Positions 20,683-44,237 of a DNA stretch of 64,000 bases are shown here, one piece after another. The position numbers were made by a program, and so were the translations under genes. The notes below the pieces were generated by a model. The model saw only the letters and a list, made by a program, of their open reading frames with translations. It was not told where the DNA came from and made no database searches. Origin of the DNA: Trueperaceae bacterium (GTDB lineage: Bacteria; Deinococcota; Deinococci; Deinococcales; Trueperaceae); the NCBI GenBank assembly GCA_965213925.1, contig OZ243927.1, positions 864,001-928,000 of the forward strand, written 5' to 3'. The stretch's first letter is position 1. Each line of letters begins with the position of its first letter.

Positions 20683-20730
20683 GGAAAGGTTGTTCTTTTG
20701 TCAGCGAAAGGGAAGCTGTATAATACAGCT

Positions 20731-20955
20731 ATGGCTGACAGCAATTTTGAGCGCACCTTCGCGGCTTTACCTCCCGACCTCAAGCAAGAGGTCCAAGACT
20801 TTGCTGAGTTTCTCCTTTCCAAGCGATCAACGCAAGATAGAGCTGTGAGTGACGCTCACCCGCTCGCGAGCTTAGCGGGCGCATGGCGCGACGAGCCGCT
20901 CTCGGACGAAGACCTCTTGCCTGAACGAACGCTCGGACGCGGCGTCGATCTCTAA
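20731..20955 (+). CDS. DUF2281-like antitoxin
   Basis: LPPDLKQEVQDFAEFL...LAGAW; upstream of a PIN toxin. Confidence 0.7.
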   Translation: MADSNFERTFAALPPDLKQEVQDFAEFLLSKRSTQDRAVSDAHPLASLAGAWRDEPLSDEDLLPERTLGRGVDL

Positions 20956-20962
20956 ATTCTAG

Positions 20963-21364
20963 GTGCTTTATCTTCTCGACACGGATACGCTTGTTTTCTA
21001 CTTGCGGGGACGCTCCGAGGTGAGACAGAAAATTCTCAGCGTCCCTACGGATGATCTCTGCACTAGCGCTATGTGCATCGGCGAGCTTTATTATGGTGCG
21101 GAGAAATCTCAGAAGCAAGTGGAGCGAAAAGCCGAGGTCGACCGCTTGCGTGCGGCGCTGATGAGCATCCCTCTGCAAGGGGCGGTGATGGAGCGCTTCG
21201 GTCAGTTGAAGGCGTCGCTCGAGAAGCAAGGCGAGCGGCTAGCTGACGCCGACTTACTGATCGCGGCGACAGCTCTGGAAAACAACCTCACGCTCGTCAC
21301 GGGCAACCTCAAGCACTTCCAGCGTGTGCAGGGGCTGAAGATGGAGAGTTGGATCAAGCGCTGA
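20963..21364 (+). CDS. vapC: VapC PIN-domain toxin
   Basis: YLLDTD, GELYYGA, DLLIAATAL, LVTGNLKHF. Confidence 0.9.
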   Translation: MLYLLDTDTLVFYLRGRSEVRQKILSVPTDDLCTSAMCIGELYYGAEKSQKQVERKAEVDRLRAALMSIPLQGAVMERFGQLKASLEKQGERLADADLLIAATALENNLTLVTGNLKHFQRVQGLKMESWIKR

Positions 21365-21385
21365 AACGTCAGAAGGGCTGAGCCA

Positions 21386-21417
21386 TTATGCGTGAGACGC
21401 GCGCGTCTCTTGCAGAA
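21386..21417. repeat. 32-bp candidate recombination site G
   Basis: TTATGCGTGAGAC-GCGCGC-GTCTCTTGCAGAA (30/32 identical to site A). Confidence 0.85.
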
Positions 21418-21438
21418 GAAATCAGCAAGTATAACTCT

Positions 21439-21873
21439 TTAAGAGGTGGTTGCATCCTTCGGAGGGTAACGCCCTATTGCCTGCAAAACCTCCCGCTCCA
21501 GCAGCCTTTCGCGGACGTTGAACTGGAGCAGGCGTTCGGTGACGCGGGCGATATCGGTGAGCGGCATGATCTTCACCTGGTCGAGTTCGAAATGCTCAGC
21601 CCACAGGTCCACTCGCGGATTGTAAAAGCGCGCGAACGCCTCTGTCTTCCAGTCGATCGAGCCGATGTCGCTTCCCTTAGCGCGATTACAGACCACGCAG
21701 GCGAGTGCTAGGTTGTCCTCTTCGGTCCGCCCGCCGTGTTTCTCGCTGATGATGTGATCGATTTGCATTGCGTAGTAGCTGTCGTCTTCGTGGATCAAGC
21801 AGTATTCGCAGCATCTATTCGCCTTAGCTAAAACGCGCTGGCGCAGGTCCGCCGGGATATACGTTTTACTCAC
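21439..21873 (-). CDS. HNH endonuclease
   Basis: CCEYC...IDHIISEKHGG...NLALACVVCNRAKG...YNPR. Confidence 0.85.
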   Translation of the reverse strand: MSKTYIPADLRQRVLAKANRCCEYCLIHEDDSYYAMQIDHIISEKHGGRTEEDNLALACVVCNRAKGSDIGSIDWKTEAFARFYNPRVDLWAEHFELDQVKIMPLTDIARVTERLLQFNVRERLLEREVLQAIGRYPPKDATTS

Positions 21874-22099
21874 TCAGCAATTGCCTAGCTTTGGCTTTCG
21901 CTAAGCGCATAACGTGCTCGAGCTGCATATACTGGTCGAGCTCGCGACGCTCGTCCTGGGATAACCCCTGCGCCTTCTCTTGTTCGATAAGTTCGGCGAC
22001 CCGTGCTTGTGCGCCCTCAGAGGGGCGGAAGGAGACAACCCCAGAGGGATTTGCACCTGCGATCAGGTCAACGATTTCTTGGTAAGCGAGGGTTGCCAT
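21866..22099 (-). CDS. Small helical protein coupled to the HNH gene (antitoxin-like)
   Basis: FRPSEGAQARVAELIEQEKAQGLSQDERRELD; overlaps the HNH start. Confidence 0.7.
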   Translation of the reverse strand: MATLAYQEIVDLIAGANPSGVVSFRPSEGAQARVAELIEQEKAQGLSQDERRELDQYMQLEHVMRLAKAKARQLLSE

Positions 22100-22131
22100 A
22101 ACGCTATTATACCTCAGCTTGAGAAATGGGA

Positions 22132-22163
22132 TTCTGCGTGTGATGCGCGCGTTCGCCGCACAA
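22132..22163. repeat. 32-bp candidate recombination site H
   Basis: TTCTGCGTGTGAT-GCGCGC-GTTCGCCGCACAA. Confidence 0.85.
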
Positions 22164-22216
22164 AATTATCGAAGAGAACAAACGATGCGATGAGAAACTA
22201 CTTTGTGCCCCAACAT

Positions 22217-22678
22217 CTACCGTTTGAGCAGTCGCGGGTCATAGTTGAACGCTTGCGCCTCGCCGATCTCTACTCGCCCAGCATCGGGATGGTTCGGATT
22301 AAAAAGGTAGTTCCGTTCCGCCGCGACCACACGGCTCGGCACCGCGAGGAGCACCGACGCGTTACGCTTGACCCAAGCGTCCCCGATCGCTTGAGTGGTA
22401 GGTAGACCTTCAGGCTCAGCCCAGTTCTCGGACAAGCTCTCAGGCGACACGTTCAGTAGAAGCGTTTCGCCAAAGGTAATTGGAATAGCTGTATAAGGCT
22501 CAAGCGCACGCTCGTAGTCGATGTGGACGAGTAGCTCCAAAGCTGCGAGGGCTAAACTGCTCGCTAGATAAACGACTGCCGTGCCCGCTGAGTTCCAGCG
22601 ACCTCCGTAACGCCGCGCCCCCTCACCGTCGAATGCGGATGCAGCCCATTTAGGCGCGACGAGCCGCCAGGCTTTCAG
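22217..22678 (-). CDS. RES-domain toxin (NAD+ phosphorylase family); apparent CTG start overlapping the antitoxin stop
   Basis: Frame extends beyond the ORF track call: LKAWRLVAPKWAASAFDGEGARRYGGRWNSAGTAVVYLASSLALAALELLVH...VPS...NYLFNPNHPD. Confidence 0.85.
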   Translation of the reverse strand: MKAWRLVAPKWAASAFDGEGARRYGGRWNSAGTAVVYLASSLALAALELLVHIDYERALEPYTAIPITFGETLLLNVSPESLSENWAEPEGLPTTQAIGDAWVKRNASVLLAVPSRVVAAERNYLFNPNHPDAGRVEIGEAQAFNYDPRLLKR

Positions 22679-23124
22679 TAGAACACTCCATGCTCAACAC
22701 GGTGTAGTAGATGCTCGACCTCGCGCGCTCCCAGCTCACTATGGGCGAGTTCGAAAGGCGTTTGTCCGCCAAAAACTGGGCGCGGTGTCTGCATCCAACG
22801 CCGAGCTAAATCTTTGTCTCCAATGACCTGAGTCGCTAGAGCATAGAGTTCGGCAAAGCGCACCAACCGCTCGGATGGGCTGGACTCGAGTGGCGCACCC
22901 GCCTCTTCACGCCGCTGAACTGTGCGTAAGGAGAGACCAACTGCCTTCGCGAGGTCCTCGCGGGCAATACCTGCAGTCTTGCTGAACTGATCAAAGGCAG
23001 CAGCCGATAAACCTGAGCGCACCGTGCGGATACGCTCGAGCGGGGTACTCTGCGCCAGACCTAAAGCTGCATCCCAGATGCTCTGCTCCGCCGGGGGTGG
23101 GGTGAAATCGAAAACAGCATCCAT
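22675..23124 (-). CDS. Xre/MbcA/ParS antitoxin
   Basis: HTH LSLRTVQRR, ARRWMQTP, FGGQTP, VEHGVF. Confidence 0.85.
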   Translation of the reverse strand: MDAVFDFTPPPAEQSIWDAALGLAQSTPLERIRTVRSGLSAAAFDQFSKTAGIAREDLAKAVGLSLRTVQRREEAGAPLESSPSERLVRFAELYALATQVIGDKDLARRWMQTPRPVFGGQTPFELAHSELGAREVEHLLHRVEHGVFY

Positions 23125-23265
23125 AGCTAACCTCCAGACTACTGTCAATAATTATACGACAGAAGTCGCGTCAAGGCAGACTATTTATCGACATGTATGG
23201 TCAGTACACCTAACTGTCTTGAGGGGCTGATGTAGCGTATGCATGACCGCCCAGCCTACGCCTCG

Positions 23266-24799: not shown

Positions 24800-25780
24800 G
24801 GAACAGATGGAACTCGACGCCCGCGACGTGTGGCGCGCGCCAACTATCAAGAGGTGAAAGAGGGGCGCGGCACCGAGGCGGGCGGCGTGTTCCTAGACAT
24901 TTCACATAGGGACGCCGACTTCAAGAGGGGAGCGCCTCGGCACCGAGGCGGGTTCAAAGACGGCGTGTTCCTAGACATTTCACATAGGGACGCCGACTTT
25001 ATCCGGGAGCGCCTCCCTAAGATCGTTCGCCAGTTCAAAGAGCAGGGCGTGGACATCACCGCTGAGCCGATGGAGGTCGCCCCGACCGCGCACTACGCGA
25101 TGGGCGGCATCAAGATAGATTTCGGGACGGGCGAGACGGACGTGCCGGGGCTCTTCGCCTGCGGCGAGGCCACCTCGGGGGTGCATGGCGCGAACCGCTT
25201 AGGGGGTAACTCGCTCTGCGAGACGGTGGTCTTCGGGAAGGTTGTCGGCGCACATGTGGCGGGCGAGATAGGCGCGCTGCCCGAGCCGAACGTTGACGAG
25301 GACGAGGTGGACGCCGAACTCGCTCGGCTCCGCGACCTGAGCGAGGCAGATGGAGATACAGAACCCGACGCGCTGATAGACGAACTCGGCAACCTGCTCT
25401 GGGACCGCGCGGGGATCGTCCGCAACCAGGTGGGGCTCGAGCAAGGGCTAGAGGAGCTGGCTACGTTGCGCGAACGCGCTCAAAACCTCCGCGTCGAAGG
25501 GGGCGTGACGGGTCACGACTTCGAGTTCGCCAACAACTTACAGTTCATGCTGCTCGCAGCCGAAGCTATCCTGCGCGGCGCGCTCATGCGGGACGAGTCG
25601 CGCGGCGCGCACCACCGCGACGACGCCCCGGAGGAGAAAGAGGAGTGGCAACAGAACATCCTCTACCGCAAAGAAGGCGGGCAGATGGCGCTGACGACCG
25701 AGGCGGTCGGTGAAGTACCCGAAGGGATTCAGCACGCCATAGAGGAGGGGCACACGCTCGAGTATCATCACCTGGAGTAG
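24800..25780 (+). pseudogene. 5'-truncated SdhA/FrdA/NadB-family flavoprotein with an internal duplication
   Basis: ELDARDV (frameshifted), [48 protein letters not shown] present twice. Confidence 0.75.
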
Positions 25781-32482: not shown

Positions 32483-32514
32483 TTACGCATTAGACGCGCG
32501 CATCACACGCACGA
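32483..32514. repeat. 32-bp candidate recombination site L
   Basis: TTACGCATTAGAC-GCGCGC-ATCACACGCACGA (its reverse complement shares the left arm of site H). Confidence 0.7.
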
Positions 32515-32581
32515 AGTCTATGCAAATCTCCGCCCGAACTCTGCCCCGGTACTTAGCTGAATACCGATTCCAGGCGGTGCC

Positions 32582-33298
32582 TCACTCAAGCTGACTCAGC
32601 GTCATGACGTTCCTGATCTTTTCCAGGTGCGCCGCCTCGACCTCCAGCCAGCTTTCCTCACGTTCTCCGCCCTCGCGCAGCTCCGCCGCAGCGAAGCCCG
32701 AGGGCTTTAGGTCGTCGATAAAAATGATGAGGAGCTCTTTGCGGCGGGCCGAGTCCGGGATATGAACGAGCCGCGCGTAGAAATACTCGTCAGGGTAGCT
32801 GTAGCCTTTGCCAGCAAGGAACTTGCGCACGAGGTAGCCGTCCGTTCCTGGTGAGCCAAGCCGCCAGAACCTAACGTCAATGCCTGCTGCTGTGTCCGTA
32901 TAGAAGTTGAGGCCGTCTATTTCGACTCGAAGCGGAGAGTCAGTGTAATCATAGGCGTAGTCGTTGCTAGGCAAAAAGCCTTCAAACTGCAGCCAGAAAA
33001 GGCTTTTCAAACTTCCGTCCGGATGCTCCTCGACGAAGAAATGCTGTTCAACATCAGCGGTGCCGTAGAGTTCGAACGTTTGACCGCCGATGTACTCGTA
33101 GTCTTCGTCAAACATCATGTTCATGGCGGGGTCGGCTCGCGAGGTAAGGGTACCGGCTGACACAGATTTTTCTAATTCGGCGAATTCAGGTGATGTCGTC
33201 AACCTACCGGGGTCTGTAAAGTAGAAGTAGATAGCGGCAGCAGCCACAGTGATGAGGGCGAGTCCGGCGGCGATCAGGATAATCCTCTTCATAAGCAC
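32582..33298 (-). CDS. Hypothetical membrane-anchored protein (single-gene cassette)
   Basis: N-terminal TM helix; bounded by sites L and M. Confidence 0.7.
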   Translation of the reverse strand: MLMKRIILIAAGLALITVAAAAIYFYFTDPGRLTTSPEFAELEKSVSAGTLTSRADPAMNMMFDEDYEYIGGQTFELYGTADVEQHFFVEEHPDGSLKSLFWLQFEGFLPSNDYAYDYTDSPLRVEIDGLNFYTDTAAGIDVRFWRLGSPGTDGYLVRKFLAGKGYSYPDEYFYARLVHIPDSARRKELLIIFIDDLKPSGFAAAELREGGEREESWLEVEAAHLEKIRNVMTLSQLE

Positions 33299-33326
33299 AT
33301 TTACTATAAAGCCTTCGCCTATTCCT

Positions 33327-33358
33327 CAAGGACACAGTTGCGCGCGTTCGCCGCACAA
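33327..33358. repeat. Candidate recombination site M (left arm degenerate)
   Basis: CAAGGACACAGTT-GCGCGC-GTTCGCCGCACAA. Confidence 0.7.
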
Positions 33359-33454: not shown

Positions 33455-35677
33455 CTATGGGGAGGTATACACCCAATTTAGAAGTGCGCCTTCAACGCCC
33501 CCCGACACCAGACTGTCGCCATCAGATGACCAATCAAGGGCGAGAGAGCCAAAATCACCGAACGTCGTTTGCTGATGCCCTTCCAACCCCGTAATTCTTT
33601 CACCGGTGGCTGCCACCCAAACATGCACGCCGTCGTCCGCCTTCGCTTCGTCATCGTAGGTTGAACCTGACGTGGCGAGCCGGTGACCGTCAGGGCTCCA
33701 CGCTAACTCGTCAATGCCGTAAGGCGCTTCGATTGTAGCTAATGTTTTCTCTGAAGTACTATCAATGATTTGAACTTTTCCGCTCGACCCGCCGACGGCG
33801 AGCCGCTGGCTGTCAGGACTCCAGGCGATAGTTTTCGGATCTCGGTCAATTGTGAACGTGTGCATAAGGCGGCTAGTTTCCGCGTCCCACACTTTGACCT
33901 CGTCATAGCCTCCTCCAGCGAGCTTTGTCCCATCAGGGCTCCACGCCAGAGTAAAAATAGGGCGATAGTCTTGAACCTCGAATGTTTTGAGTAAGCTACC
34001 TGTCGTCCCATCTCGCACCTTGATCGTGCCATCTTGACCCCCACTTGCCAATCTCGTGCCGTCCGGACTCCAGCCGACTGCGTATACCTCACCACGGTGC
34101 GCGTCAACCGAGAAGAGTTGTTTGCGCGTAGCCATATCCCAAATCTTTAGAGCGCCTTCGTTGTCCTGACCACTGGCGCTTGCTAATTTTGAACCGTCCG
34201 GGTGCCAAGCGATGGCGTGAACAAAAGTGTCAAGCTCCGCTAGTGTACCGAGGCTGCGCCCCGAGGCGGCCTCCCAAACCTTAACGGTTCCGTCGTAACC
34301 TCCGCTCGCTACCTTGCCTTCGTGCAATTTGACAGTGGCGACCCGAGCCGCGTGACCGTTCGACGACATGACCTTTTGTCCGCTCTCGGCGTTCCACACG
34401 CTAAACCAAGGGATGGTGTCGTCGGCCGCAAAACGGTCGCCGTCGGGGTGCCAGTCTGCTCCTAAGACCACTCGAGCCTTCCCTACGACGCGCAGCATTT
34501 CTCTGCCCGTAGCGGCGTCCCAGATTCTTAGTTCACCCTCAGTTCCACCCCCTAAGATGCGATTCGTATTGGGTTCCCAGGCTACGACCAGAGGTTGAAA
34601 GTAATCTTCGTCGTCATCTCTCAACAGGACGCGCACAGGCTGACCCGTGTCAGCGTCCCAGATCACGACCTTGCCGCCGTTGCCGCTACTCACAAACTGC
34701 GAGCTGTCGGCGTTCCAGTCGACGTCCCAGACCCCTCCGAAAACATCAATCTCATAGAGGTGTTCGCCGGTTTCTGCATTCCATACACTGATCGAACGGT
34801 CTCCACCTACGATCTTCTCGCCATCCTGACTCCACGCCACAGCGTTATAGGTGTAATTATCGAGGCTCCAAAGCTCCTGGCCGCTCGCTATGTCCCACAC
34901 CCGCAATAACGCGTCGCCGCAGCTAACAAGTTTAGTCCCATCCGGACTCCAAGCTATATCGGTGACTTCTTCTGTATGTCCGACTAGGTCGGCGACGACT
35001 TCGCCCGTTGCCACAGACCAAACTTTAAGGCTTCCGCCCTTAAACGGTGCACCCGAACCACTTGCCACGAAAAGTCCATCCGGACTAAATGCGACCGCTT
35101 CGGCTTTTGCCGAATAGGTGTCGGAATCGAAATGATCATCGAGAGTGAATTTTAGGCTTCCCGTGGTTGCGTCCCAAAGTTTGACCATGCCGTCTGCCCC
35201 GCTAGTCGCGAGCAACTGTCCAGTCGGGCTCCAATCTAAATAGCGGACCTCCGCTGTATGGCCTGCGCCGAGTTTCCAGGCTACGTTAGTAGAGGGTAAC
35301 TGCCCTTCAACTTCTATCTTGCGCGTCGCTTTCGAGGACGTGCTCTTTGCGGAAAGCGTATAAGTTGTCTCTCCAACCGACCAGACAGCAGCTTCGGATA
35401 AACCGCTGACGTCGCCTATATCTGGCTCGAGAGTGAGCGTCAGCGACTCATCGGGAACTTGCCAGCTCAGCTGTACAGCCTCTCCGGCGGGCACAGTGAG
35501 CGTGGAAGCGGTCAATGACGTGATTAAAGTGGGGTCTGTCTCGAGGTCGACCGGGTTGTTGCCGTCTTTTACCTCATGAGTACACGATACTAACAGAGCC
35601 AAACTAAGAAGGAGGGAGCCGACGAGCCGTCTTTGATAAAAAGCCCGCACGTTCAGGCTGCTGAAATAGCGTCTCAT
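33455..35677 (-). CDS. WD40-repeat lipoprotein (probable double beta-propeller)
   Basis: Lipobox-like LLVSC; about 14 GH...WSPDG...WD repeats; ATGA overlap with the upstream gene. Confidence 0.9.
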   Translation of the reverse strand: MRRYFSSLNVRAFYQRRLVGSLLLSLALLVSCTHEVKDGNNPVDLETDPTLITSLTASTLTVPAGEAVQLSWQVPDESLTLTLEPDIGDVSGLSEAAVWSVGETTYTLSAKSTSSKATRKIEVEGQLPSTNVAWKLGAGHTAEVRYLDWSPTGQLLATSGADGMVKLWDATTGSLKFTLDDHFDSDTYSAKAEAVAFSPDGLFVASGSGAPFKGGSLKVWSVATGEVVADLVGHTEEVTDIAWSPDGTKLVSCGDALLRVWDIASGQELWSLDNYTYNAVAWSQDGEKIVGGDRSISVWNAETGEHLYEIDVFGGVWDVDWNADSSQFVSSGNGGKVVIWDADTGQPVRVLLRDDDEDYFQPLVVAWEPNTNRILGGGTEGELRIWDAATGREMLRVVGKARVVLGADWHPDGDRFAADDTIPWFSVWNAESGQKVMSSNGHAARVATVKLHEGKVASGGYDGTVKVWEAASGRSLGTLAELDTFVHAIAWHPDGSKLASASGQDNEGALKIWDMATRKQLFSVDAHRGEVYAVGWSPDGTRLASGGQDGTIKVRDGTTGSLLKTFEVQDYRPIFTLAWSPDGTKLAGGGYDEVKVWDAETSRLMHTFTIDRDPKTIAWSPDSQRLAVGGSSGKVQIIDSTSEKTLATIEAPYGIDELAWSPDGHRLATSGSTYDDEAKADDGVHVWVAATGERITGLEGHQQTTFGDFGSLALDWSSDGDSLVSGGVEGALLNWVYTSP

Positions 35678-36798
35678 TTGAAGAAGAGGCTCCAAAGGAT
35701 AACTTCTGCTCCTCGGCTACCAGAGACGAGAAACTGGCCGTCCGAACTCCAATCAAGCGTGGTAACTGATCCGATATGACCTATAAGTGAAACAAGCTCT
35801 TGGCCGGTTATGGCGTTCCAGATTTGGACACTTTGGCCGTCGCCGCTGGCGGCGAGTTGAGTACCGTCAGGGCTCCAGCTAAGCCCATAGATAAAGCGGT
35901 TAACGTCTGAATATATAGTGAACGGCTCCGAAGGAGATATCAGGGTCCATACCTTAACCTTGGACGAGTCAAGCGTAGCGGCTAAACGCGTACCGTCAGG
36001 GCTCCAAGCCAAATTGTGCACGCTATCGTAAGTGTCAAGCCCTTTCAAGACAATTTCCTTGCTCGTCGCGACCTCCCAAACGCTAACGTCTCCCCACTGG
36101 TTGCCCGCTGCGAGAAAACGTCCATCTGGACTCCAGACGATGTCAGCGATGCGGCCGGAGATTCCAGAAAAAGACACGCCCTCAGTCCCGGTCGCAGCGT
36201 CCCAGGTCTTAATAGCGCCTATACCGCTGTCTTTTAATTCGCCTCCTGCCGAGCGGACGCCATCCGGCCCCCAGTCGATAATCGCTTCGTAGCTGCCTTC
36301 AATCGTAAGTTGAAGACCTCCAGATGTTACGTCCCAAGTCTTGAATCTAGCCACGCTACCTGTCCCAGCGCCAGGGACGATTTCATAATAAGCAGCTGTT
36401 GTAAAGGCGCTGCCATCAGGCTTCCAAGTTGCGTCATCGAAGCCTGGATAGCTATTGTCGGTGAGAGACGATAGTTTCGTTCCGGTTGTAGTCTGCCACA
36501 GGTAGGCAACACCATCACGGGCAACGCTTAAAACACGGCTGTTGTCTGGGCTGAAGGTTACGGCAGTCACCTCGTCTTGGTGCCCCGCCGCGAAGGTGGT
36601 AATGGTCAGATCCTTCGCAGCAGTGTCTGCATTCCATAGTCCAAGCGTGCCATCTGTGGCTCCTGTGAGAAGTTTAGTGCCCTCTGGATGCCAAGCAATG
36701 TCGGCTTCCCAGGAAGAAAGTCCCTCCGTCTCCTTAGCGCCCTTGAGTTCTCGCAGCGCAGACCCAGTTGAGGCATCAGCAAGAATGGCATGGAGATC
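35674..36798 (-). pseudogene. 5'-truncated WD40-repeat protein
   Basis: WD40 frame continues upstream of 36570 (DIAWHPEGTKLLTGATDGTLGLWNA) to about 36798, where cas5e sequence takes over. Confidence 0.8.
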
Positions 36799-36800
36799 CC

Positions 36801-37073
36801 TAGCCGATCTATCTCGGTCGGCGTGGCTACTATCCGAGCGTCCCGCTGTTTGTCATTGACGGGCTGAAAAAGGCGAGTTTGGAGGAGGCTATCGCTACCT
36901 ATCCCCGTGTCCTAGCCGATAAAGCGGTGCGGTTCGCCGACTGCCACATCGAAGGCAAAGGCAAGGTCGTACACGACCAGCCCGTCAGCTTCGCCACTCA
37001 TACCTTCGGACCCCGGAGGGTCTACCACTGCTGCGTCAGCAAGTTAGGAGCATCATGTACGTCACCGAACTGA
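36801..37073 (+). pseudogene. cas5e: C-terminal half of type I-E Cas5 (Cas5e/CasD)
   Basis: *PIYLGRRGYYPSVPLF...DQPVSFATHTFGPRRV matches the Cas5e LYLGRKSCxPSxP and DxPxSF...F..R motifs; overlaps the cas6e start. Confidence 0.8.
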
Positions 37074-37723
37074 CCTTAAACCAGGACAACCTCTTCGCCA
37101 TGCGCGACGTCGCCGACCGCTACGAGACGCACCGCTCTGTGAAGCGCTTGACCGAAGGGATGGAGCGCAGGGTTTTGTGGCGGCTCGACATGCAGCGTGA
37201 ATGGCGGCTCACGGTTCAATGTGAGCGTCCGCTCGAGCCGCGCTATGTGTCCAAGGCGATGCCCGGATACGCCGATCAAGTCCGGAGCGCGGAGGTTGCT
37301 ACGAATTTCGACCCTGGCGACCTGCTCCTCTTCCAGCTCGAGGCGAACCCGACCGTGAAGTGTGCCAAAAAGCGGCGGGCGCTAAAGAGTATGGCTGAGC
37401 TACAGGAGTGGCTACAAAGGAAGTTTGATGATGCAGGTTGTGAACTCCTAGACTTTGCAATCTTGAAGCAGCAAGCGTTACGGTTATATCGCCAGAAGAG
37501 GCCAGATGAACAAGAAAATGACGACGAGAATGGGTGTAAGTACGCCATGTTCAACAGCGTCAGGTTCATGGGCAGCACTAAAGTAGTAGACCTTAAAGCG
37601 CTCAAAGATACGCTCGAGGCTGGCATCGGCAGCGCGAAGGGATATGGCTTTGGGTTGCTCTCATTGCGACCTATCCCTTACAGAGACATAGCTGGAGTTA
37701 AAGTCTCAAAAAGCGTGTGTTGA
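37055..37723 (+). CDS. cas6e: Type I-E CRISPR endoribonuclease Cas6e/Cse3
   Basis: MYVTELTL, YETHR, VLWRLD, FQLEANPT, QEWLQRK, G-rich loop GIGSAKGYGFGLLSL. Confidence 0.93.
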   Translation: MYVTELTLNQDNLFAMRDVADRYETHRSVKRLTEGMERRVLWRLDMQREWRLTVQCERPLEPRYVSKAMPGYADQVRSAEVATNFDPGDLLLFQLEANPTVKCAKKRRALKSMAELQEWLQRKFDDAGCELLDFAILKQQALRLYRQKRPDEQENDDENGCKYAMFNSVRFMGSTKVVDLKALKDTLEAGIGSAKGYGFGLLSLRPIPYRDIAGVKVSKSVC

Positions 37724-37729
37724 TCGAGC

Positions 37730-37878
37730 CTTTTCCCCACTCGCGTGGGGGTGGCGCGGGCGACTGATGCGCCTCGCCCTACTCCTCGCCTTTTCCCCAC
37801 TCGCGTGGGGGTGGCGCGCAAACGGGCGCGGCGAAGGGCAAAGAGGGCATTCTTCCCCACATTGGTGGGGGCGGTACC
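37730..37878 (+). CRISPR. Type I-E mini-array: 2 identical repeats, 1 diverged terminal repeat, 2 spacers (60-bp period)
   Basis: CTTTTCCCCACTCGCGTGGGGGTGGCGCG at 37730 and 37790; TTCTTCCCCACATTGGTGGGGGCGGTACC at 37850; CCCCAC/GTGGGG stem plus 8-nt handle; starts 7 bp after the cas6e stop. Confidence 0.92.
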
Positions 37879-38048
37879 ATCAGCAGAGCAAATCAAAAGC
37901 GAAAGCTGGAGTAAGTCCAGTGCATCGCGGCGAATCGCCAAAATACATTGGACGGCTGATGTATAGAAATGTCGATATCCAAGACATTGGGCGCATGATG
38001 TTTGAAACTCTTGATTAGACGAGGACTTACAGGAAGGCGTAGCAACTC

Positions 38049-38711
38049 CTATGTTGCGACTGGATGTCGAATCTCTCCAATCATGAGTCCCATTACTATG
38101 CTCGATTGGAACCAGCAGAAATTCTCGTCAACAGGGGCACGAAGTACATCCGTGAAACGCAGGTCGTACCCGCAAATTACGCAACAGTGGAGTTCCTCTT
38201 CGTCACCTCTACCGATCACTATAGCGCTCCCATAGCTATCACACTCGGTGTGTAGAAAGTTCTTATGATGTACGCAAACGCTGCAAAAGCTATACATCCA
38301 CTCCCGCCGAAAGAAAGGTTGCGTGTCCTCGAGAAGGCAGCGCGGACAATATTGAGTTGTGACAATTGGTTTAGGAGTTTTCGTCTGACGTGGGCGGTGA
38401 GAAAGTAGCTCACGCGAGCGGACACTCGCGCTTTTAATGCGTACCCGTGTCGGCGCAAGCAGCGCTTCGATATCGCCCACTGCTTGACCCGTACCCCGAG
38501 CCAAAACCTCGACCACGCTTTCTAGCTGACTGCCCTTTCGGTCTCTTATCCCTTTAGGGATAAGAGACTTGAGCAGCTTTTTTCCACTCCGCTTCTCCAA
38601 CACCTTCCAAAATCTATCCCAAGCTAAGCCGTTGCTCACAGCCAACCTAGCAACCCAGGAAGCGAAACTCTCACCTTGAAACAGTGAAGCGTGATACAGC
38701 CACAAATCCAT
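38049..38711 (-). CDS. tniQ: TniQ family target-selector protein
   Basis: N-terminal LWLYHASLFQGESFASWVARLAVSNG; Zn-binding QYCPRCLLED..PFFRREW...CVHH...CCVICGYDL. Confidence 0.85.
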   Translation of the reverse strand: MDLWLYHASLFQGESFASWVARLAVSNGLAWDRFWKVLEKRSGKKLLKSLIPKGIRDRKGSQLESVVEVLARGTGQAVGDIEALLAPTRVRIKSASVRSRELLSHRPRQTKTPKPIVTTQYCPRCLLEDTQPFFRREWMYSFCSVCVHHKNFLHTECDSYGSAIVIGRGDEEELHCCVICGYDLRFTDVLRAPVDENFCWFQSSIVMGLMIGEIRHPVAT

Positions 38712-38834
38712 ATGACAGTGTAGCAAATAGAGCAGCTTTCTTCGAAAGGACTGAAGTTGTAAACCGCTTCGGAGATCGCCCGTATACAGCCACTTTGTGA
38801 TATTATGCAGATGTGCCCCGCCCGAGCCAGAGCG

Positions 38835-38880
38835 ATTCTCAGTATTCTTTACCTATTCTCAAAATTCTTTGTTTCTGACA
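38835..38880 (-). mobile_element. Tn7-like transposon end (terminal TGT plus two putative TnsB-binding repeats)
   Basis: Minus strand reads TGTCAGAAAC-AAAGAATTTTGAGAAT-AGGT-AAAGAATACTGAGAAT; repeats at 38855-38870 and 38835-38850, 20-bp period. Confidence 0.7.
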
Positions 38881-38883
38881 CAC

Positions 38884-39908
38884 CTATTCGAATAGAGGCG
38901 ACTGCGGCGGATAGTTCGTAATCATGACCTCTTTGCCCTTCGCCGCGCCCTCTTGCTTATAGTTGTTCATCCCGTACTGAAGTTCCCAAGGGACGATGTG
39001 CGCAAATGAAAAGAGCGCCCTGACCTCTTCGCAATCGTCATAAGTGATGAGCCATTTGTGCTTCACCTTTTGCATCACGGCGGCAAAACGCTCGTGATCG
39101 AAGGTCGTGTGCAGCTTCCCTTTTTTGCCGTAGAGCTTTGACTTTGTAGCGGATAAATAGGGCGGGTCCAGGAAAATAAAGACGTTTTCGCCGCCTAACG
39201 CACCGGGAGACCCGGATGCTGCGGACCCTAAACCCGGATGCTGCGGACCCTAACGCACCGGGAGACCCGGATTTCGCCGGACCCTAACGCACCGGGAGAC
39301 CCGGATGCTGCGGACCCTAACGCACCGGGAGACCCGGATGCTGCGGACCCTAACGCACCGGGAGACCCGGATGCTGCGGATGGCGCTAAGACGACCTCTT
39401 CGTAGTCGAGATTGGTAATCTTGGTCCCTTCAAGAAGAGGGGCGACGCGCCGTAAACGCCCTATCGAGGACTGCGTGAAGCGCTTTTCAAATGCACCTTG
39501 CGAATAGCCGCCCGCTTCGACCGTGCCCGAAAAGGTGATGCGGTTGAGGAGAAAAAAGCGGATGGCTCTGTGTAAGGGTGCGTCGGGTACGTTATCGACC
39601 AATGAGCGGTGCAGCGTGCGTCCGTCTGTCACCGTATCTTTCTGCTGCTGCACGCCTTCGACGAGCGCCTCTGGGCAATCGCGTAGGTAAAGCCAGAAGT
39701 GGTAAAGCTCTGCGTTGAGGTCGCTAATCCAGAACGAGGCGTTTGGGTGTTGCTGCCGCAAAGCTAAAAAGACAGAGCCGCCCCCTATGAAGGGTTCGCG
39801 GAACTCGCTGAACGTTGGAACGAGCGGCAGGATGGTTTTAAGTGCTTTTGCCTTACCGCCTGGATACCTCAGCGGTGTTTTTACCGAAGTGAAAAGACCG
39901 TCTTGCAT
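38884..39908 (-). CDS. dam: Dam-family (D12 class) DNA adenine methyltransferase, frameshifted within a 33-bp tandem repeat as assembled
   Basis: TPLRYPGGK, EPFIGGGSVF, SDLN in 39228..39908; FIFLDPPY, FDHERF, WLITYDD, EVMITNY in the downstream frame. Confidence 0.85.
38924..38958 (-). other. Protospacer for CRISPR spacer 2 with 5' AAG PAM, in the 3' end of dam
   Basis: Minus strand AAG|CAAGAGGGCGCGGCGAAGGGCAAAGAGGTCAT versus spacer CAAACGGGCGCGGCGAAGGGCAAAGAGGGCAT: 29/32. Confidence 0.9.
39194..39380. repeat. 33-bp tandem repeat (about 5.5 copies, two aberrant)
   Basis: Unit CCTAACGCACCGGGAGACCCGGATGCTGCGGAC (GSAASGSPGAL); one 22-bp and one 34-bp copy. Confidence 0.9.
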
Positions 39909-40882: not shown

Positions 40883-41239
40883 ATGTACCGAGGAAGAGAA
40901 GGGCAGTGGGCGTTCGTACTCCACCGACTTTCCGGTGTAGCACTCGCTCTTTATCTGCTGCTACACGTTTTAGATATCAGCTTGATCATGTATGGACCCA
41001 GAGTGTTCAACGCCTTTTTAGCGTTCTATCACCAGTGGCCCTTTCGCATCGGTCTTATATTGATCATGGCGGGCGTCGTCTACCACTCGTTCAACGGACT
41101 GCGCATTATCTTGATGGACTTTACCGAGTGGGGCACGCGCTATCACCGCTCGCTCTGGTACGGCGTGCTAGGAATTACGACTATTATCGGCATTCCCGTT
41201 CTCATCAAAGTTCTCCCTGAAATCTTTGGAGGTGCCTAG
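40883..41239 (+). CDS. sdhC: Succinate dehydrogenase cytochrome b subunit
   Basis: MYRGREGQWAFVLHRLSG, HSFNGLRI. Confidence 0.9.
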   Translation: MYRGREGQWAFVLHRLSGVALALYLLLHVLDISLIMYGPRVFNAFLAFYHQWPFRIGLILIMAGVVYHSFNGLRIILMDFTEWGTRYHRSLWYGVLGITTIIGIPVLIKVLPEIFGGA

Positions 41240-41676
41240 TGGCCGTTAAAGCCAAAACGCTCAACCAGGCGAAAGCCTTACACAACACTAACAGCGAACT
41301 CGCGTGGTGGGTTTTCATGCGCGTGTCGGGGCTTATTCTTGTCTTTTTAGTCTTTGGACACCTCTACTTCAACAACATCGCCTTTAACGCAGGCAACATC
41401 GACTACGCTTACGTCGCTGAGCGCGTTTCGAAGCCCTGGATCAAGGTCTACGACTCCTTCTTGCTCGGTTTTGCCATGTTGCACGGCGTCAACGGACTGC
41501 GCTACAGCATCGAGGATTACATCCGCAAACCGGGGCGGCGTTTCGCGTGGAAGGTGGTGCTCTATACGGTGGCAGGCATCATCCTCGTTATCGGCGTGAT
41601 CACGCTCTGGTCCTTTTCATTCGACGAGATGGGCGACGCGGTTCGTGCGCTGCCTGCCGAACAACATTCGCAGTAG
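41239..41676 (+). CDS. sdhD: Succinate dehydrogenase membrane anchor
   Basis: FMRVSG, HGVNGLRYSIEDY; operon position. Confidence 0.9.
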   Translation: MAVKAKTLNQAKALHNTNSELAWWVFMRVSGLILVFLVFGHLYFNNIAFNAGNIDYAYVAERVSKPWIKVYDSFLLGFAMLHGVNGLRYSIEDYIRKPGRRFAWKVVLYTVAGIILVIGVITLWSFSFDEMGDAVRALPAEQHSQ

Positions 41677-41688
41677 GTAGGAGGCACT

Positions 41689-43428
41689 ATGTCGAGAGCA
41701 CATAAATACGACGTGATTGTGATTGGCGCGGGCGGCTCAGGGTTGATGGCGGCGCGGTACGCGGCGCAGGAGCCCGGCGTGTCCGTCGCGGTCATCAGTA
41801 AACTTTACCCGACCCGCTCGCATACAGGGGCGGCGCAAGGGGGTGTGGGCGCAGCTTTAGGCAACGTCACCGACGACCACCCCGACTGGCACGCCTTCGA
41901 TACGGTCAAGGGTGGCGACTACCTAGCGGACCAAGACGTCGCGGAGATGTTCGCGTACGAAGTCGTCGAGGCAGTCTACGAGTTAGAGCACATGGGCTTG
42001 CCCTTCTCACGTACGCCTGAAGGCAAAATCGCCCAGCGTAAATTCGGTGGGCACACCCGCGAATTCGGCAAGAGCGCCGTCGAACGTGCCTGCTACGCGG
42101 CGGACCGCACGGGTCACATGATTTTGCAGACGCTCTATCAGCAGTCCATCAAGAACAACGTGACCTTTTTCAACGAGTTCCACGTGCTCGACATGATCAT
42201 GGAAGCCGGTGAGTGTCGCGGCGTGGTGGCGTACGAGCTTGCCACGGGCGAGCTTCACACCTTCCAGGCGAAAGCCACGATTGTCGCCACCGGCGGCAAC
42301 GGGCGCATGTTCAAAGTGACCTCGAACGCGCACGCCTTGACGGGCGACATGATGAGCGTCGTCTACCGGCGCGGCATCCCGATTGAAGACCCCGAGTTTT
42401 ACCAGTTCCACCCGACGGGTCTCTACAAAATTGGCGTTTTACTGACTGAGGGCGCAAGAGGTGAAGGTGGGATTTTGCGTAATAGCGAGGGCGAGCGCTT
42501 TATGGAGCGTTACGCGCCTTCCATCAAGGACTTAGCGCCGCGGGACATGGTCTCGAGGGCGATGTACCTAGAGATGCGCGAAGGGCGCGGCACCGGACCC
42601 GACGCCGACTACATCCACCTCGACCTCACCCACATCGACGATCACATCATCGAGACGCGCCTCCCCGATATCACCGAGTTCGCCCGGATTTACCTAGGCG
42701 TTGACCCCTTAAACGAGCCCGTCCCCGTGCAACCCACCGCGCACTACGCGATGGGTGGCATCCCCACGACCATCGACACCGAAGTCATCATGGACGGCGA
42801 CAACGCCGTCGTGCCAGGGCTCTACGCCGCAGGTGAAACAGCGTGCGCCTCGCTGCACGGCGCGAACCGCCTCGGCACAAACTCGTTAGGCGACCTCATC
42901 GTGTTCGGACGCCGCGCGGGTATCTTCGCTGCTCGTTACGCCGCGGGAGCGGAGTACGGCAAGCTGCCTTTAGACGCGCAAGACTTTGCTAAGAGCCAAC
43001 TCGACACCGCGCTGAACGGCTCTGGTAAGGAGCGCGTGAGCCGCATTCGTAAAGAGATGCAAAACACCATGATGGACAACGCCTCGGTCTTCCGCACTGA
43101 AGAGACCCTGTGTACGCAGATCGAAAAGCTCAGAGAACTCAAAGAGCGCTATAAAGGCATCGGCGTTGAGGACAAGGGCGAGCAGTTCAACACGGAGCTG
43201 ATGGAAGCGATTGAACTCGGCTTCCTTTTAGACAACGCCGAGCACCTCGTCCACGCGGCGTATAACCGCAAGGAATCGCGCGGCGCGCACTCCCGCGAGG
43301 ACTACAAGGAGCGCAACGACGACGAGTGGCTCAAGCACACGCTCGTCTATAAAGACGGCGACGGCGTGCGCATCGACTATAAACCCGTAACCTTGGGCAA
43401 GTACGAGCCTAAGCCGAGAGTTTATTAA
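41689..43428 (+). CDS. sdhA: Succinate dehydrogenase flavoprotein
   Basis: [32 protein letters not shown]. Confidence 0.97.
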
Positions 43429-43514
43429 GCAACTCAGCGTCTCAGCTAGTCAGCATTTCAGGTCTTTCCTGACTAGCTGACTAGCTGACCGGCTGAAATG
43501 CTATAAGGATTTTT

Positions 43515-44237
43515 ATGAACGCAGACGCAATGAAACCCAGAGAAATCAACGTCAAGATCAAGCGCTTTAACCCCGAAGAGGACAAGCGACCTTATTGGGC
43601 GGAGTACAAAGTCGAAGCGCGACCGACTGACCGCGTGTTAGACGTGCTCCACGAGATTAAATGGGAAATCGACGGCACGCTCTCCTTCCGCCGGAGCTGC
43701 GCGCACGGCATCTGCGGCTCGGACGCGATGCTTATCAACGGCGTGAACCGCTTAGCGTGCAAGATTTTGGTCAAGGATTTGGGCGATGACATCTCGGTTG
43801 AGCCGATTCGCGGGCTCGAGGTGCTTAAAGACATGGTTGTCGACATGGAGCCCTTCTTCGACTCCTACAAAGCGGTGCTGCCCTACTTCATCAACGACGA
43901 CGCCCCGCCCACCACCGAGCGCTACCAGAGCCCCGAAGACCGCGAAGTGTTCGACGACACGACCAAGTGCATCCTCTGCGCGGCGTGCACGACCTCTTGC
44001 CCGATCTTCTGGACGAACGGCTCGTACTTGGGTCCAGCGGCGATCGTTAACGCGCACCGCTTCATCTTCGATTCACGTGACAGCGGCACTACCGAGCGTT
44101 TAGAGGTGCTCAATCAGGCCAACGGCTTGTGGCGCTGCCGCACCGCATATAACTGCACGCAGGCGTGCCCGCGCGGGATTCCGGTGACGCAAGCGATTGA
44201 AGAGGTTAAGAAGGAGTTGTTGTGGCGCAGAGCGTAA
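43515..44237 (+). CDS. sdhB: Succinate dehydrogenase iron-sulfur subunit
   Basis: SCAHGICGSD, CILCAACTTSCP, CRTAYNCTQACP. Confidence 0.97.
   Translation: MNADAMKPREINVKIKRFNPEEDKRPYWAEYKVEARPTDRVLDVLHEIKWEIDGTLSFRRSCAHGICGSDAMLINGVNRLACKILVKDLGDDISVEPIRGLEVLKDMVVDMEPFFDSYKAVLPYFINDDAPPTTERYQSPEDREVFDDTTKCILCAACTTSCPIFWTNGSYLGPAAIVNAHRFIFDSRDSGTTERLEVLNQANGLWRCRTAYNCTQACPRGIPVTQAIEEVKKELLWRRA

Follow-up and report, generated by a model that had tools for sequence, protein, structure and literature searches.

Two short direct repeats lie just beyond the stop codon of a dam methyltransferase gene in a 64,000-nucleotide stretch of a Trueperaceae genome (the window), and they raise the question of whether they mark the end of a Tn7-like transposon and, if they do, how such an element came to rest at this gene. 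The reading that we favour, with a probability of about 0.88, is that positions 38835-38880 are the target-proximal terminus of a Tn7-like CAST carrying a type I-E-derived guide module, which homed to dam and has since decayed. The case is built from the boundary of the element, its gene content, a match between spacer and target with its PAM and spacing, the truncation of the element and the architecture of its relatives.

The element end beside dam

The comparison involves the 4.75-Mb genome containing the window (G000), a genome of the same genus (G001) and one of another genus (G282). The features at the end of the element are as follows.

38881..38885, no strand: CACCT, the 5 bp bordering the terminus, presumably one copy of a target-site duplication; the empty site of G001 has it a single time
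38871..38880, minus strand: terminal 10 nt of the element, TGTCAGAAAC, with the end set by G001 empty-site homology
38855..38870, minus strand: outer 16-bp repeat, AAAGAATTTTGAGAAT, putative TnsB-binding site from its position, analogy and its G282 counterpart
38835..38850, minus strand: inner 16-bp repeat, AAAGAATACTGAGAAT, putative TnsB-binding site, 20 bp start-to-start from the outer repeat

On the plus strand this segment reads ATTCTCAGTATTCTTT-ACCT-ATTCTCAAAATTCTTT-GTTTCTGACA, and the order on the minus strand is TGTCAGAAAC, AAAGAATTTTGAGAAT, AGGT and AAAGAATACTGAGAAT. An end motif followed by tandem repeats with a 20-bp period had been read on the minus strand, and both the sequence and its uniqueness within the genome bear this out. 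The pattern AAAGAATNNTGAGAAT has two matches in the window at up to two mismatches, both of them these repeats, where shuffling gives an expectation of 0.21; at up to one mismatch the same two repeats are the sole matches in all 4.75 Mb. Their role as TnsB sites is suggested by position and analogy.

The last base of the element is 38880, as predicted, since homology to the unoccupied dam site of G001 begins at 38881 and the alignment of the two genomes splits exactly between ...GACA and CACCTAT.... The original prediction had named two observations that together would speak against it, the lack of a matching second end or duplication and the presence of the repeats downstream of dam in genomes without the island. 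The comparison with an unoccupied dam locus shows that the repeats are not present downstream of dam in G001, so the second of the two does not hold.

The near end of the G282 element is 85% identical to the end in the window over 41 nt. Its terminus, TGCAAAAAAT, aligns with 38871-38880, its outer repeat, AGAGAATTTTGGGAAT, likewise stands 10 nt from the terminus, and the counterpart of the inner repeat is AGAGAAAATTGAGAAT. The breakpoint, a tniQ gene directly inside it and this matching end of an intact element all uphold the assignment to the Tn7 family, with a TG terminus and tandem repeats.

No partner end of the predicted kind, with CACCT as its flank, turned up in the genome. Scanning with AAAGAATNNTGAGAAT at up to one or two mismatches gave nothing convincing as a partner, and the core TG[AG]GAAT forms no further cluster in the genome. 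Among the matches listed of 1168 CACCTTG sites, each had one site-like word only. The left neighbour of dam in G001 maps to about 4.127 Mb in the window's genome, and there is no end there. The duplication of CACCT has no second copy to compare because the element is truncated at 36803/36804.

The target gene

38884..39908, minus strand: dam, a D12/Dam-family N6-adenine methyltransferase (PF02086, E 1.9e-20)

The stop codon at 38884-38886 closes a minus-strand open reading frame (38884-39078) that encodes the C-terminal part of the methyltransferase; the rest is read in another frame (39228-39908). Between the two, a 33-bp tandem repeat at 39210-39380 adds 155 nt relative to the intact G001 gene and shifts the frame, and dam is therefore not intact in this assembly. 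Contigs of the source runs were compared at the locus (those of X3 and X4 provided no usable coverage); since none of the contigs listed bridges the repeat, the count of 33-bp units may be an assembly error. The proposed position of the insertion, 3 bp beyond the stop codon of dam, is upheld; the gene itself appears frameshifted in this assembly.

A probable guide for dam

37730..37879, plus strand: mini CRISPR array of three repeats with a type I-E-like repeat fold
37730-37758 and 37790-37818: repeats of the array
37759-37789: spacer 1
37819-37850: spacer 2, the homing spacer
37851-37879, plus strand: atypical terminal repeat of the array
38924..38958, minus strand: protospacer (38955 to 38924) and PAM AAG (38958-38956), within the 3' end of the dam coding sequence

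The choice of site had been likened to that at glmS; what the locus contains instead is a CRISPR guide, with the spacer at 37819-37850 facing dam at 38924-38955. The 29-nt repeats fold into a 7-bp stem with a 4-nt loop, as does the host I-E repeat, and the mini-array repeat has no other copy in the genome at up to four substitutions. Spacer 2 matches dam at 29 of 32 positions, and, apart from the spacer itself, this protospacer is the sole place in the genome within seven substitutions of it. The protospacer ends 43 nt from the terminus of the element. The mismatches lie at spacer positions 4, 5 and 29, the first two within what we take to be the seed of studied I-E systems, and the pair in its present form might not bind. 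These seed mismatches are compatible with later drift or with capture of the spacer from a host with another dam allele. Spacer 1 has no convincing target, with best matches of six substitutions in the genome, E 0.2 among plasmids and E 0.8 among phages.

Surviving genes and decay

What survives of the element is 2.07 kb (36804-38880), with the following content and left border.

37908..38726, minus strand: tniQ, with an open reading frame at 38049-38726 (225 aa; PF06527, E 2.3e-17)
37055..37723, plus strand: cas6e, full length, 222 aa (PF08798, E 3.6e-34)
36804..37070, plus strand: cas5e stub, the C-terminal 88 codons, equivalent to G282 Cas5e residues 133-220
36803..36804, no strand: deletion or recombination joint at which 5'-truncated cas5e meets a 5'-truncated WD40-repeat gene
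33455-36803, minus strand: WD40-repeat gene, 5'-truncated

The tniQ reading frame is closed by TAG at 38049-38051, while homology to full-length relatives runs on to about 37908, and the protein is 55% identical to G282 TniQ across residues 1-268, through the stop. A relative fragment (P0008) has Trp where this copy has TAG, and one contig of source run X1 carries C at 38050, giving TGG in place of TAG. Cas6e scores 66.9 bits against TIGR01907 casE_Cse3 (cutoff 45.2), is 58% identical to G282 Cas6e and 37% identical to the host's own, and retains the Tyr and His that are invariant in the alignment. The cas5e stub is 62% identical to G282 Cas5e (tblastn, E 2e-30) and directly follows an in-frame TAG at 36801-36803; DNA homology to G282 ends at 36808. 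Contigs of X1 break exactly at 36803, and mean contig depth rises from 8.0 on the left of this point to 16.1 on the right.

In tblastn searches with eight G282 proteins, only TniQ, Cas6e and Cas5e residues 133-220 were matched at the locus; elsewhere in the genome the matches were confined to a tniQ scrap of 45 residues at C1:3.26 Mb and to the canonical I-E genes of the host, which lie 3 Mb away. Neither cas7 nor cas8 of the element was found in the genome, there is no Cas3, Cas1 or Cas2 between 36804 and 38880, and tnsA, tnsB and tnsC were found neither in the window nor elsewhere in the genome. Since TnsA, TnsB and TnsC are missing here and present in G282 and G001, the copy in the window is a remnant and not a complete Tn7-like member, and this remnant cannot move. 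The WD40 genes were considered as shared cargo and rejected, because tblastx of window positions 1-38880 against the G282 element gave real similarity at 36804-38880 only. The orphan CRISPR parts that form a patch of 2 kb next to dam are thus read as a transposon fossil, and the DNA to their left as rearranged.

Relatives in other genomes

The architecture that the remnant lacks is preserved in G282, where an intact-looking element of 48,985 bp has two ends and eight intact genes. An operon of tnsA, tnsB, tnsC, a cas8e/cse2 fusion, cas7e, cas5e and cas6e leads into the array, while tniQ is separate and convergent, between the array and the end. Domain matches identify TnsA (PF08722), TnsC (PF05621, TniB) and Cas7e (PF09344); the Cse1 and Cse2 domains lie within one 590-aa protein in G282 and in separate open reading frames in G018. 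The best matches of G282 TnsB among solved structures are the TnsB proteins of CASTs (E 7e-24 to 1e-10), and TnsC and the TniQ profile gave no sequence match to solved structures. The TniQ proteins are short (225-297 aa), with the TniQ family as their sole Pfam match.

The far end of the G282 element, located by a motif scan, consists of an inverted terminus, TGACAAAAAC..., with at least four related sites. The left flank is TACCT and the right flank ACCTT, so that only ACCT (four of five bases) is common to them and a clean 5-bp duplication is not seen. The flanks are harder to read because this far end adjoins a stub left by an older near end. Synteny with G005 did not lead to the far end; the sequence to the right of the arginase gene there has its counterpart in G282 at a distance of 1.87 Mb. 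A motif match at L044:15304 was considered as an element end and dropped as chance, lying inside an open reading frame.

More diverged copies in G001 and G018 have the same layout at other target genes, with tniQ flanked by analogous repeats, and the G001 element also encodes TnsA, TnsB and TnsC. The homing spacer of G282 matches an arginase-family gene at 30 of 32 positions (mismatches at 12 and 30), with PAM AAG and a distance of 42 nt; that of G018 matches a PilT-like ATPase gene at 26 of 32, again with AAG and 42 nt. In the second element of G001, the spacer matches the 5' part of ruvC at about 25 of 32 positions, with a distance of about 37 nt and, with the spacer registered as in the other elements, the PAM AGG. 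The PAM is therefore AAG in three of the four elements and AGG in the fourth, both of which we take to be I-E PAMs. The homing spacer is the last of two in G000, G282 and G018 and the sole spacer in G001, and in all four elements it is followed by a degenerate repeat. Homologues of the host I-E Cas3, Cas1 and Cas2 were found neither in the 48,985-bp G282 element nor at the G001 and G018 loci.

G001 and G018 are grouped with G282 by layout, which would not imply a single origin, as their Cas proteins appear no closer to those of G282 than the host's canonical I-E proteins are. Identity to G282 Cas5e is 44% in G001, 42% in G018 and 41% for the host canonical protein, and the corresponding values for Cas6e are 34%, 27% and 37%.

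A model for insertion and loss

By analogy with I-F3 and I-B CASTs, an order of assembly can be proposed in which TniQ would serve as the bridge between guide complex and transposase. Cas6e would cut the pre-crRNA at I-E-type hairpins, and a Cas3-less Cascade loaded with the last spacer would bind, in the 3' end of a gene of the host, a 32-nt protospacer with PAM AAG. From its place at the PAM-distal (Cas6e) end of the complex, TniQ would recruit TnsC and the TnsA/TnsB transposase, and TnsB, bound to the 16-bp repeats of both ends, would insert the element approximately 42-44 bp past the protospacer, just beyond the stop codon.

Structure prediction hints at a contact between TniQ and Cas6e of G282. 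The predicted complex scored 0.41 (0.12, 0.49 and 0.41 in three runs) against 0.01 for the best control, in a range (0.60 or less) that holds only 18 of 157 solved complexes as well as both of the mismatched pairs that passed the mark for such models, a mark passed by 116 of the 157 solved complexes and by 2 of 215 mismatched pairs. With alignments of five rows as input, the runs had at least 69% of contacts in common and a partner pLDDT of at least 79.

Transposition into dam is what the one surviving end and the empty site in another species point to. The subsequent decay may be accounted for by a deletion that fused cas5e at about codon 133 to the WD40 gene and would have taken with it the 5' part of cas5e, the genes cas7e, cas8e, tnsC, tnsB and tnsA, the far end and whatever cargo there was; tniQ would have gained its TAG in place of a Trp codon.

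Alternative explanations

The least improbable of the alternatives, itself unlikely, is that Cas6e and the mini-array form a domesticated module, supplying crRNA to the host I-E Cascade 3 Mb away, which would then bind dam as repression or as tolerated self-targeting. The full-length cas6e with its invariant Tyr and His, the intact array and a complete host I-E system with the same stem (CCCCAC/GTGGGG) in its repeat all agree with such a role, and the mismatches at positions 4 and 5 would presumably blunt lethal interference by Cas3. However, the 8-nt 5' handle differs from that of the host at four of eight positions (GTGGCGCG versus ATGAACCG), the neighbouring genes are broken (the cas5e stub and the TAG in tniQ) as drift would give, and dam is apparently frameshifted, so that little remains to regulate.

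Slightly less probable still is that a Tn7-like element selected dam through a sequence-specific protein of the TniQ/TnsD type, with the CRISPR parts as cargo or bystanders and the spacer match secondary, for example acquired from neighbouring DNA. As TnsD of Tn7 illustrates, TniQ/TnsD proteins can read attachment sites directly; insertion just beyond a stop codon is also what is seen at glmS, and the spacer mismatches its target at positions 4 and 5. Against this reading, four diverged elements at four genes each have a spacer match 37-43 nt outside their own end, and the match has an I-E PAM on the side where it should be. There is no Cas1 or Cas2 for spacer acquisition, the short TniQ (225-297 aa) has no extra DNA-binding domain detected by Pfam, and the cas genes stand in one operon with tnsABC.

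That the repeats are chance or regulatory (a promoter or operator of tniQ, upstream of whose start they lie, or part of a dam terminator region) is the least probable reading of all, for although there are only two 16-mer copies and 2 of 100 window shuffles likewise gave two matches to AAAGAATNNTGAGAAT at up to two mismatches, the empty-site breakpoint falls exactly 10 nt past the outer repeat, the 10-nt TG terminus and two 16-mers 20 bp apart are kept at 85% in G282, an inverted copy closes the 49-kb element there, and analogous repeats flank tniQ in G001 and G018.

Comparison with known systems

Tn7 at attTn7 has TG...CA ends with repeated TnsB sites and inserts just beyond the stop codon of a conserved gene, glmS, which is left intact; the decayed CAST proposed here resembles it in the TG terminus and putative TnsB sites of its one surviving end and in its position just past a stop codon. 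Tn7 relies on TnsD, a DNA-binding protein, to read its site, and a crRNA would do so here.

The I-F3 CASTs (Tn6677/VchCAST) are alike in being Tn7-like, with TnsA, TnsB, TnsC, TniQ and a Cas3-less Cascade. They also share the short array with a homing spacer marked by an atypical repeat, the insertion at a fixed distance past the PAM-distal protospacer end at the 3' end of a conserved gene, and the fusion of Cas8 with small-subunit function. They differ in that the Cascade here is of type I-E (Cas6e PF08798, Cas7e PF09344, Cse1 and Cse2 domains, 29-nt hairpin repeat, PAM AAG), that the distance from protospacer to terminus is 42-43 nt here and approximately 49 in VchCAST, and that tniQ, the first gene of the cas operon in I-F3, is here separate and convergent beside the target-proximal end and encodes a short protein (225-297 aa).

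In the I-B, I-D, I-C and V-K CASTs, too, Tn7-like elements have independently captured a CRISPR effector; their arrays are minimal, and they home to tRNAs or conserved genes. Their effectors are of other subtypes, none with Cas6e, Cas7e or Cse1; furthermore, I-B1 keeps TnsD for glmS, and V-K is without TnsA.

Within the available parts of the literature searched, a single I-E CAST came up, that of the telomeric TnsBC transposons of Streptomyces (bioRxiv 10.1101/2024.11.13.623437), named I-E5 in PMC12669027. Like the family here, it combines a type I-E Cascade with TnsB and TnsC and is without Cas1-Cas2. In the available text of these two sources, however, I-E5 is not Tn7-like, is without TniQ or TnsA and keeps a Cas3 with an intact nuclease site, and it is telomeric, with long fragmented arrays and no protospacer by its ends (bioRxiv 10.1101/2024.11.13.623437; PMC12669027). 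In contrast, the family here has TniQ and TnsA, is without Cas3, and has an array of one or two spacers with a protospacer 37-43 nt from the end; even the decayed copy in the window departs from the I-E5 description, with TniQ present and a protospacer 43 nt from its end.

The CAST catalogue of the 2025 classification paper, in its available part, comprises I-B, I-C, I-D, I-F3, IV-A and V-K together with the non-Tn7 I-A/Mu and I-E5. No Tn7-like, TniQ-bearing I-E CAST was found in the available parts of the literature searched, the supplements of which could list such loci, nor does the term "I-E" occur in the body text of Faure et al. 2023 (PMC10293859).

Rarity and implications

Public data contain extremely few members of the family: TniQ and the Cas8e fusion have two relatives each among 5.8 billion protein clusters. 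A HMMER search of 1.84 billion representatives returned three proteins at E ≤1e-30, one of them a 78-aa fragment, with the next matches at 5e-27 (a 134-aa fragment) and then 2e-18. A scan of genome contigs for further members gave two distant or partial matches only (27% identity; an 18-residue match), and none was found in the metagenome contigs or the viral contigs scanned.

CASTs are uncommon, and every independent capture of an effector has been informative on the coupling between Cascade and transposase; their use for programmable DNA insertion is also under development. The family here combines a compact I-E Cascade (Cas8e-Cse2 fusion, Cas7e, Cas5e and Cas6e) with TnsA, TnsB, TnsC and a short TniQ, at PAM AAG and a distance of 42-43 nt. 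On balance we consider that this capture of an I-E Cascade with TniQ by a Tn7-like element is a CAST class outside the 2025 catalogue, and that the source sample may hold a sister strain with an uninterrupted tniQ and a copy extending past the joint at 36803. If so, such a strain, with its longer copy of the element, would mean recent activity, and an active member would bring the best-studied Cascade, that of type I-E with PAM AAG, to RNA-guided DNA insertion.

Element end and empty dam site

The plus strand at 38835-38880 reads ATTCTCAGTATTCTTT ACCT ATTCTCAAAATTCTTT GTTTCTGACA, which on the minus strand becomes TGTCAGAAAC followed by the 16-mers AAAGAATTTTGAGAAT and AAAGAATACTGAGAAT, putative TnsB sites spaced 20 bp. 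The 16-mer pattern matches twice in the window against an expectation of 0.21, a count also reached in 2 of 100 shuffles, and at up to one mismatch the two window copies are its sole matches in the 4.75-Mb genome. The stop codon at 38884-38886 closes the C-terminal fragment of a D12/Dam methyltransferase. The original prediction placed a Tn7-like end beside this stop, and both read on the sequence as it stated. It also proposed comparison with an unoccupied dam locus, and two genomes of the same genus were searched with a 20-kb query taken from around the site. One of these, G001, contains dam, and the alignment starts at query base 12882, window position 38881 (G001 ...GGGGGCG / CACCTATCC... 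versus window ...TTCTGACA / CACCTATTC...). Because the two sequences part there, the last base of the element is placed by this comparison at 38880. CACCT is present as one copy in the empty site of G001 and the end repeats are absent downstream of its dam, so that the predicted end is real and now fixed to the base.

The dam gene of the window is split over two reading frames. It contains a 33-bp tandem repeat at 39210-39380 (unit encoding SAASGSPGALG; spacings 33, 22, 34, 33 and 33) that adds 155 nt, with a frame shift, relative to the intact G001 gene, which carries a single unit. The unit count may be an assembly artefact, as none of the listed source-run contigs resembling the window genome spans the repeat.

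The guide and its target

The following features lie inward of the end:

38726 to 38049, minus strand: tniQ (PF06527, E 2e-17)
inward of tniQ, plus strand: mini CRISPR array, two identical repeats 60 bp apart, then a third, degenerate repeat
37055-37723: cas6e (PF08798, E 4e-34; TIGR01907 exceeds its cutoff)

This tniQ is the sole TniQ match over the Pfam cutoff in the genome, and the array repeats fold into a type I-E-like 7-bp stem with a 4-nt loop, resembling the host I-E repeat. Spacer 2 (37819-37850) is complementary to dam 38924-38955 at 29 of 32 positions, with 5'-AAG adjoining the protospacer, and a genome-wide scan at up to seven substitutions returned the dam protospacer as the only site other than spacer 2 itself. 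From the PAM-distal end of the protospacer to terminal base 38880 there are 43 nt. Homed CRISPR-associated transposons (CASTs) are recognised by a guide that the element itself carries and that matches DNA at a fixed short distance beyond one of its ends; here this guide is why the element lies at dam.

A complete canonical I-E locus lies 3 Mb away (C1:3967878-3976240, locus L015), with cas3, cse1, cse2, cas7, cas5, cas6e, cas1, cas2 and flanking arrays. Its Cas6e is just 37% identical to that of the window. The host repeat, GTATTCCCCACGCATGTGGGGATGAACCG, has the stem CCCCAC/GTGGGG in common with the fossil repeat, while the loop differs, as do four of the eight positions of the 5' handle read off the repeats. 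Spacer positions 4 and 5 belong to the I-E seed, and mismatches at these positions of spacer 2 would weaken self-targeting should the host Cascade load the crRNA of the fossil.

The tniQ coding sequence contains, at 38541-38568, a perfect palindrome of 13-14 bp (GTCTCTTATCCCT nn AGGGATAAGAGAC). This palindrome is 100% kept over 29 nt in the counterpart (L043:10430-10459) from G282, a genome of another genus of the family, with proteins just 55% identical, and may be a protein-binding or regulatory site.

Decay of the window copy

When eight proteins of the G282 element were searched against the whole window genome, the dam locus yielded only TniQ, Cas6e and, from Cas5e, the C-terminal 88 residues (36804-37070). 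Elsewhere the matches were to the canonical host I-E genes 3 Mb off and to 45 residues of a tniQ scrap at C1:3.26 Mb; TnsA, TnsB and TnsC had no match anywhere in the genome. DNA homology between window and G282 ends at 36808, and to the left of the joint, on the opposite strand, is a WD40-repeat gene with its 5' part missing. A truncated cas5e thus meets a 5'-truncated WD40 gene and, judging from the sequence, a deletion or recombination therefore fused the two at 36803/36804. The tniQ frame ends in a TAG at 38049-38051, with similarity to full-length relatives running about 47 codons further, and a related fragment in public data (P0008) has Trp at that position.

Truncation also accounts for the failure of the predicted partner end with a CACCT flank. 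No second end was found anywhere in the genome, which holds neither a second cluster of the repeat core nor a CACCT-TG with more than one site-like word, and the position corresponding by synteny to the neighbour of dam in G001 has none either. The window copy is a fossil, best called a remnant of a Tn7-like element and not a complete element.

The second tniQ scrap (C1:3260226-3260337) spans 112 bp, contains an in-frame TGA and shares 75% identity with window 38402-38513; it may be left over from a further old insertion by this element family.

Two source runs of one sample, X1 and X2, neither listed as RNA, contain window DNA. Their contigs represent a mixed community including a G001-like organism with an empty dam site and no repeat expansion, as seen in the loose end of one contig, which reads as the G001 empty site, and in one joint that skips 155 nt. 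The X1 contigs stop exactly at 36803, with a mean contig depth of 8.0 on the WD40 side versus 16-18 on the element side, and between the element-side contigs and the window there are 12 differences, including 38050 T>C in one contig, which converts the tniQ TAG to TGG. Loose contig ends at 36799 and 36803 continue into sequence unlike that of the window. A less decayed copy may exist in a sister strain within this sample; the contigs are compatible with this, though not proof of it.

Grouped at 19816-23148 are genes for a XerC/XerD-like tyrosine recombinase (19816-20682) and a RES/Xre-type antitoxin (22675-23148), with an ORF between them whose sole match is to the HNH part of IscB (21439-21873); together they suggest that window 19-37 kb, to the left of the fossil, is a patchwork of mobile DNA. 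The ORF at 24830-25780 is a gene fragment: it matches just the C-terminal half of SdhA/FrdA-type flavoproteins (profile about 297-539) and contains a duplicated VFLDISHRDADF stretch close to its beginning. The sdhCDAB operon at 40883-44237, in contrast, is intact. Window 32494-33347 includes an ORF at 32582-33298 that matched no family; this stretch shares 94% identity with a place in genome G002, against about 84-86% for syntenic core genes, which hints at recent exchange.

An intact-looking relative

Only two relatives of this TniQ were found among 5.8 billion protein clusters, and a HMMER search of 1.84 billion representatives gave three proteins at E ≤1e-30, one a 78-aa fragment, with the next match a 134-aa fragment at 5e-27. 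One relative sits in G282, in an element with the following parts:

17 nt past the stop of an arginase-family gene: terminus TGCAAAAAAT, then two 16-mers 20 bp apart
inward of the end repeats: tniQ, 272 aa
inward of tniQ: array of three repeats
listed inward from the array, all directed toward the near (target-proximal) end: cas6e, cas5e, cas7e, gene for a 590-aa protein with Cse1 and Cse2 domains, tnsC (TniB family), tnsB, tnsA
cargo, among other genes: DUF4007, PAPS-reductase, BrxL and class-V aminotransferase domain genes
cargo: UvrD-like helicase with a PD-(D/E)XK protein
cargo: erythromycin-esterase-family gene
cargo: MFS transporter

The TnsB core has sequence matches to CAST TnsBs of solved structure (E 7e-24 to 1e-10), and the first cargo set looks like DNA-modification defence. 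No homologue of the host's Cas3, Cas1 or Cas2 was found inside the element. The spacer adjoining the degenerate repeat matches the arginase gene at 30 of 32 positions (mismatches at 12 and 30), with PAM AAG and 42 nt to the terminus; in G005, a genome of the same genus with an empty site, the target departs from this spacer at one position as read by eye. The far end, 48,985 bp from the near end, carries inverted TGACAAAAAC... and at least four related sites. The flanks have ACCT in common (left TACCT, right ACCTT), a duplication of at best four of five bases.

After this ACCT the far end adjoins what remains of an older near end, a diverged stub about 50 bp long (TGCAAAAAAC and two sites; L063:1300-1545, G282:C2:~3046916-3047161), which suggests that the same attachment site was homed into repeatedly and the older copy mostly deleted.

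Diverged copies at other targets

When the Cas8e-Cse2 fusion served as query, 19 of 364 genomes of the phylum matched at E ≤1e-20, over the full length in G282 and G001 only. The other 17, among them G018, matched the Cse1 part alone, to about residue 300; the Cse2-like part of G018 was found by a separate search. The two diverged elements comprise:

G001, at a locus other than dam: tnsA, split tnsB, tnsC, cas8e-cse2 with one TGA, cas7e, cas5e, cas6e, one-spacer array, convergent tniQ
G001 element end: two 18-bp repeats and terminus TGTCAAAAAT
G018: separate cse1 and cse2 ORFs, cas7e, cas5e, cas6e, three-repeat array, tniQ, three 21-bp repeats

The G001 spacer matches the 5' part of ruvC at about 25 of 32 positions (PAM AGG if registered like the other spacers; gap of about 37 nt), and in G018 a spacer agrees at 26 of 32 with the 3' end of a gene for a PilT-like ATPase (PAM AAG; gap of 42 nt). 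No tnsABC was found in G018 within the 18 kb examined. The homing spacer is the last in the three two-spacer arrays and the sole spacer in G001, each array closing on a degenerate terminal repeat. Thus, across four elements and four target genes, neither the order of parts nor the geometry changes, which argues strongly against both coincidence and site choice by protein alone.

In G018, the 3' part of spacer 1 and the start of the next repeat resemble one end repeat of the same element (L077:11219-11256 versus 12252-12269; 15/18), a likeness that may be due to chance.

Proposed mechanism

The end and its repeats, an I-E-type guide module lacking nuclease and adaptation genes, the homing spacer, the PAM, the 42-43-nt spacing and, in the relatives, Tn7-type transposition genes are directly supported. 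By analogy with I-F3 and I-B CASTs, pre-crRNA would be processed by Cas6e and the target bound by a Cas3-less Cascade; TniQ would sit at the Cas6e (PAM-distal) end and nucleate TnsC, which would recruit TnsA and TnsB bound to the end repeats. The G282 TniQ and Cas6e complex, modelled with our own shallow alignments as input, scored 0.41 (runs 0.12, 0.49 and 0.41) versus 0.01 for the best control, with contact agreement between runs of at least 69% and partner pLDDT of at least 79. In the benchmark of this score, 116 of 157 solved complexes passed the mark, as did 2 of 215 mismatched pairs; scores up to 0.60 comprised just 18 of the 157 together with both passing mismatches. The model lends weak support to a TniQ-Cas6e contact in G282.

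Place among known CASTs

Among the subtypes named in the 2025 CRISPR-Cas classification are the Tn7-like I-F3, I-B, I-D, I-C and IV-A, as well as Mu-associated I-A and TniQ-less I-E5 on telomeric transposons; abstracts on CASTs add V-K as a further class. In the sections covered here, I-E5 elements (bioRxiv 10.1101/2024.11.13.623437) differ in being TnsBC elements that lack both TniQ and TnsA, have a Cas3 that looks active and show no end-adjoining protospacer. In Rybarski et al., the I-E Cascade is Rpn-associated and not Tn7-like. A full-text literature search and the main text of Faure et al. 2023 (PMC10293859) yielded no TniQ-bearing Tn7-like I-E CAST. The new family would work like the type I CASTs, but neither its effector subtype nor its gene order matches the described ones. 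The interest of the window fossil lies in where it points, to a very rare and apparently undescribed class of CAST with an intact-looking member.
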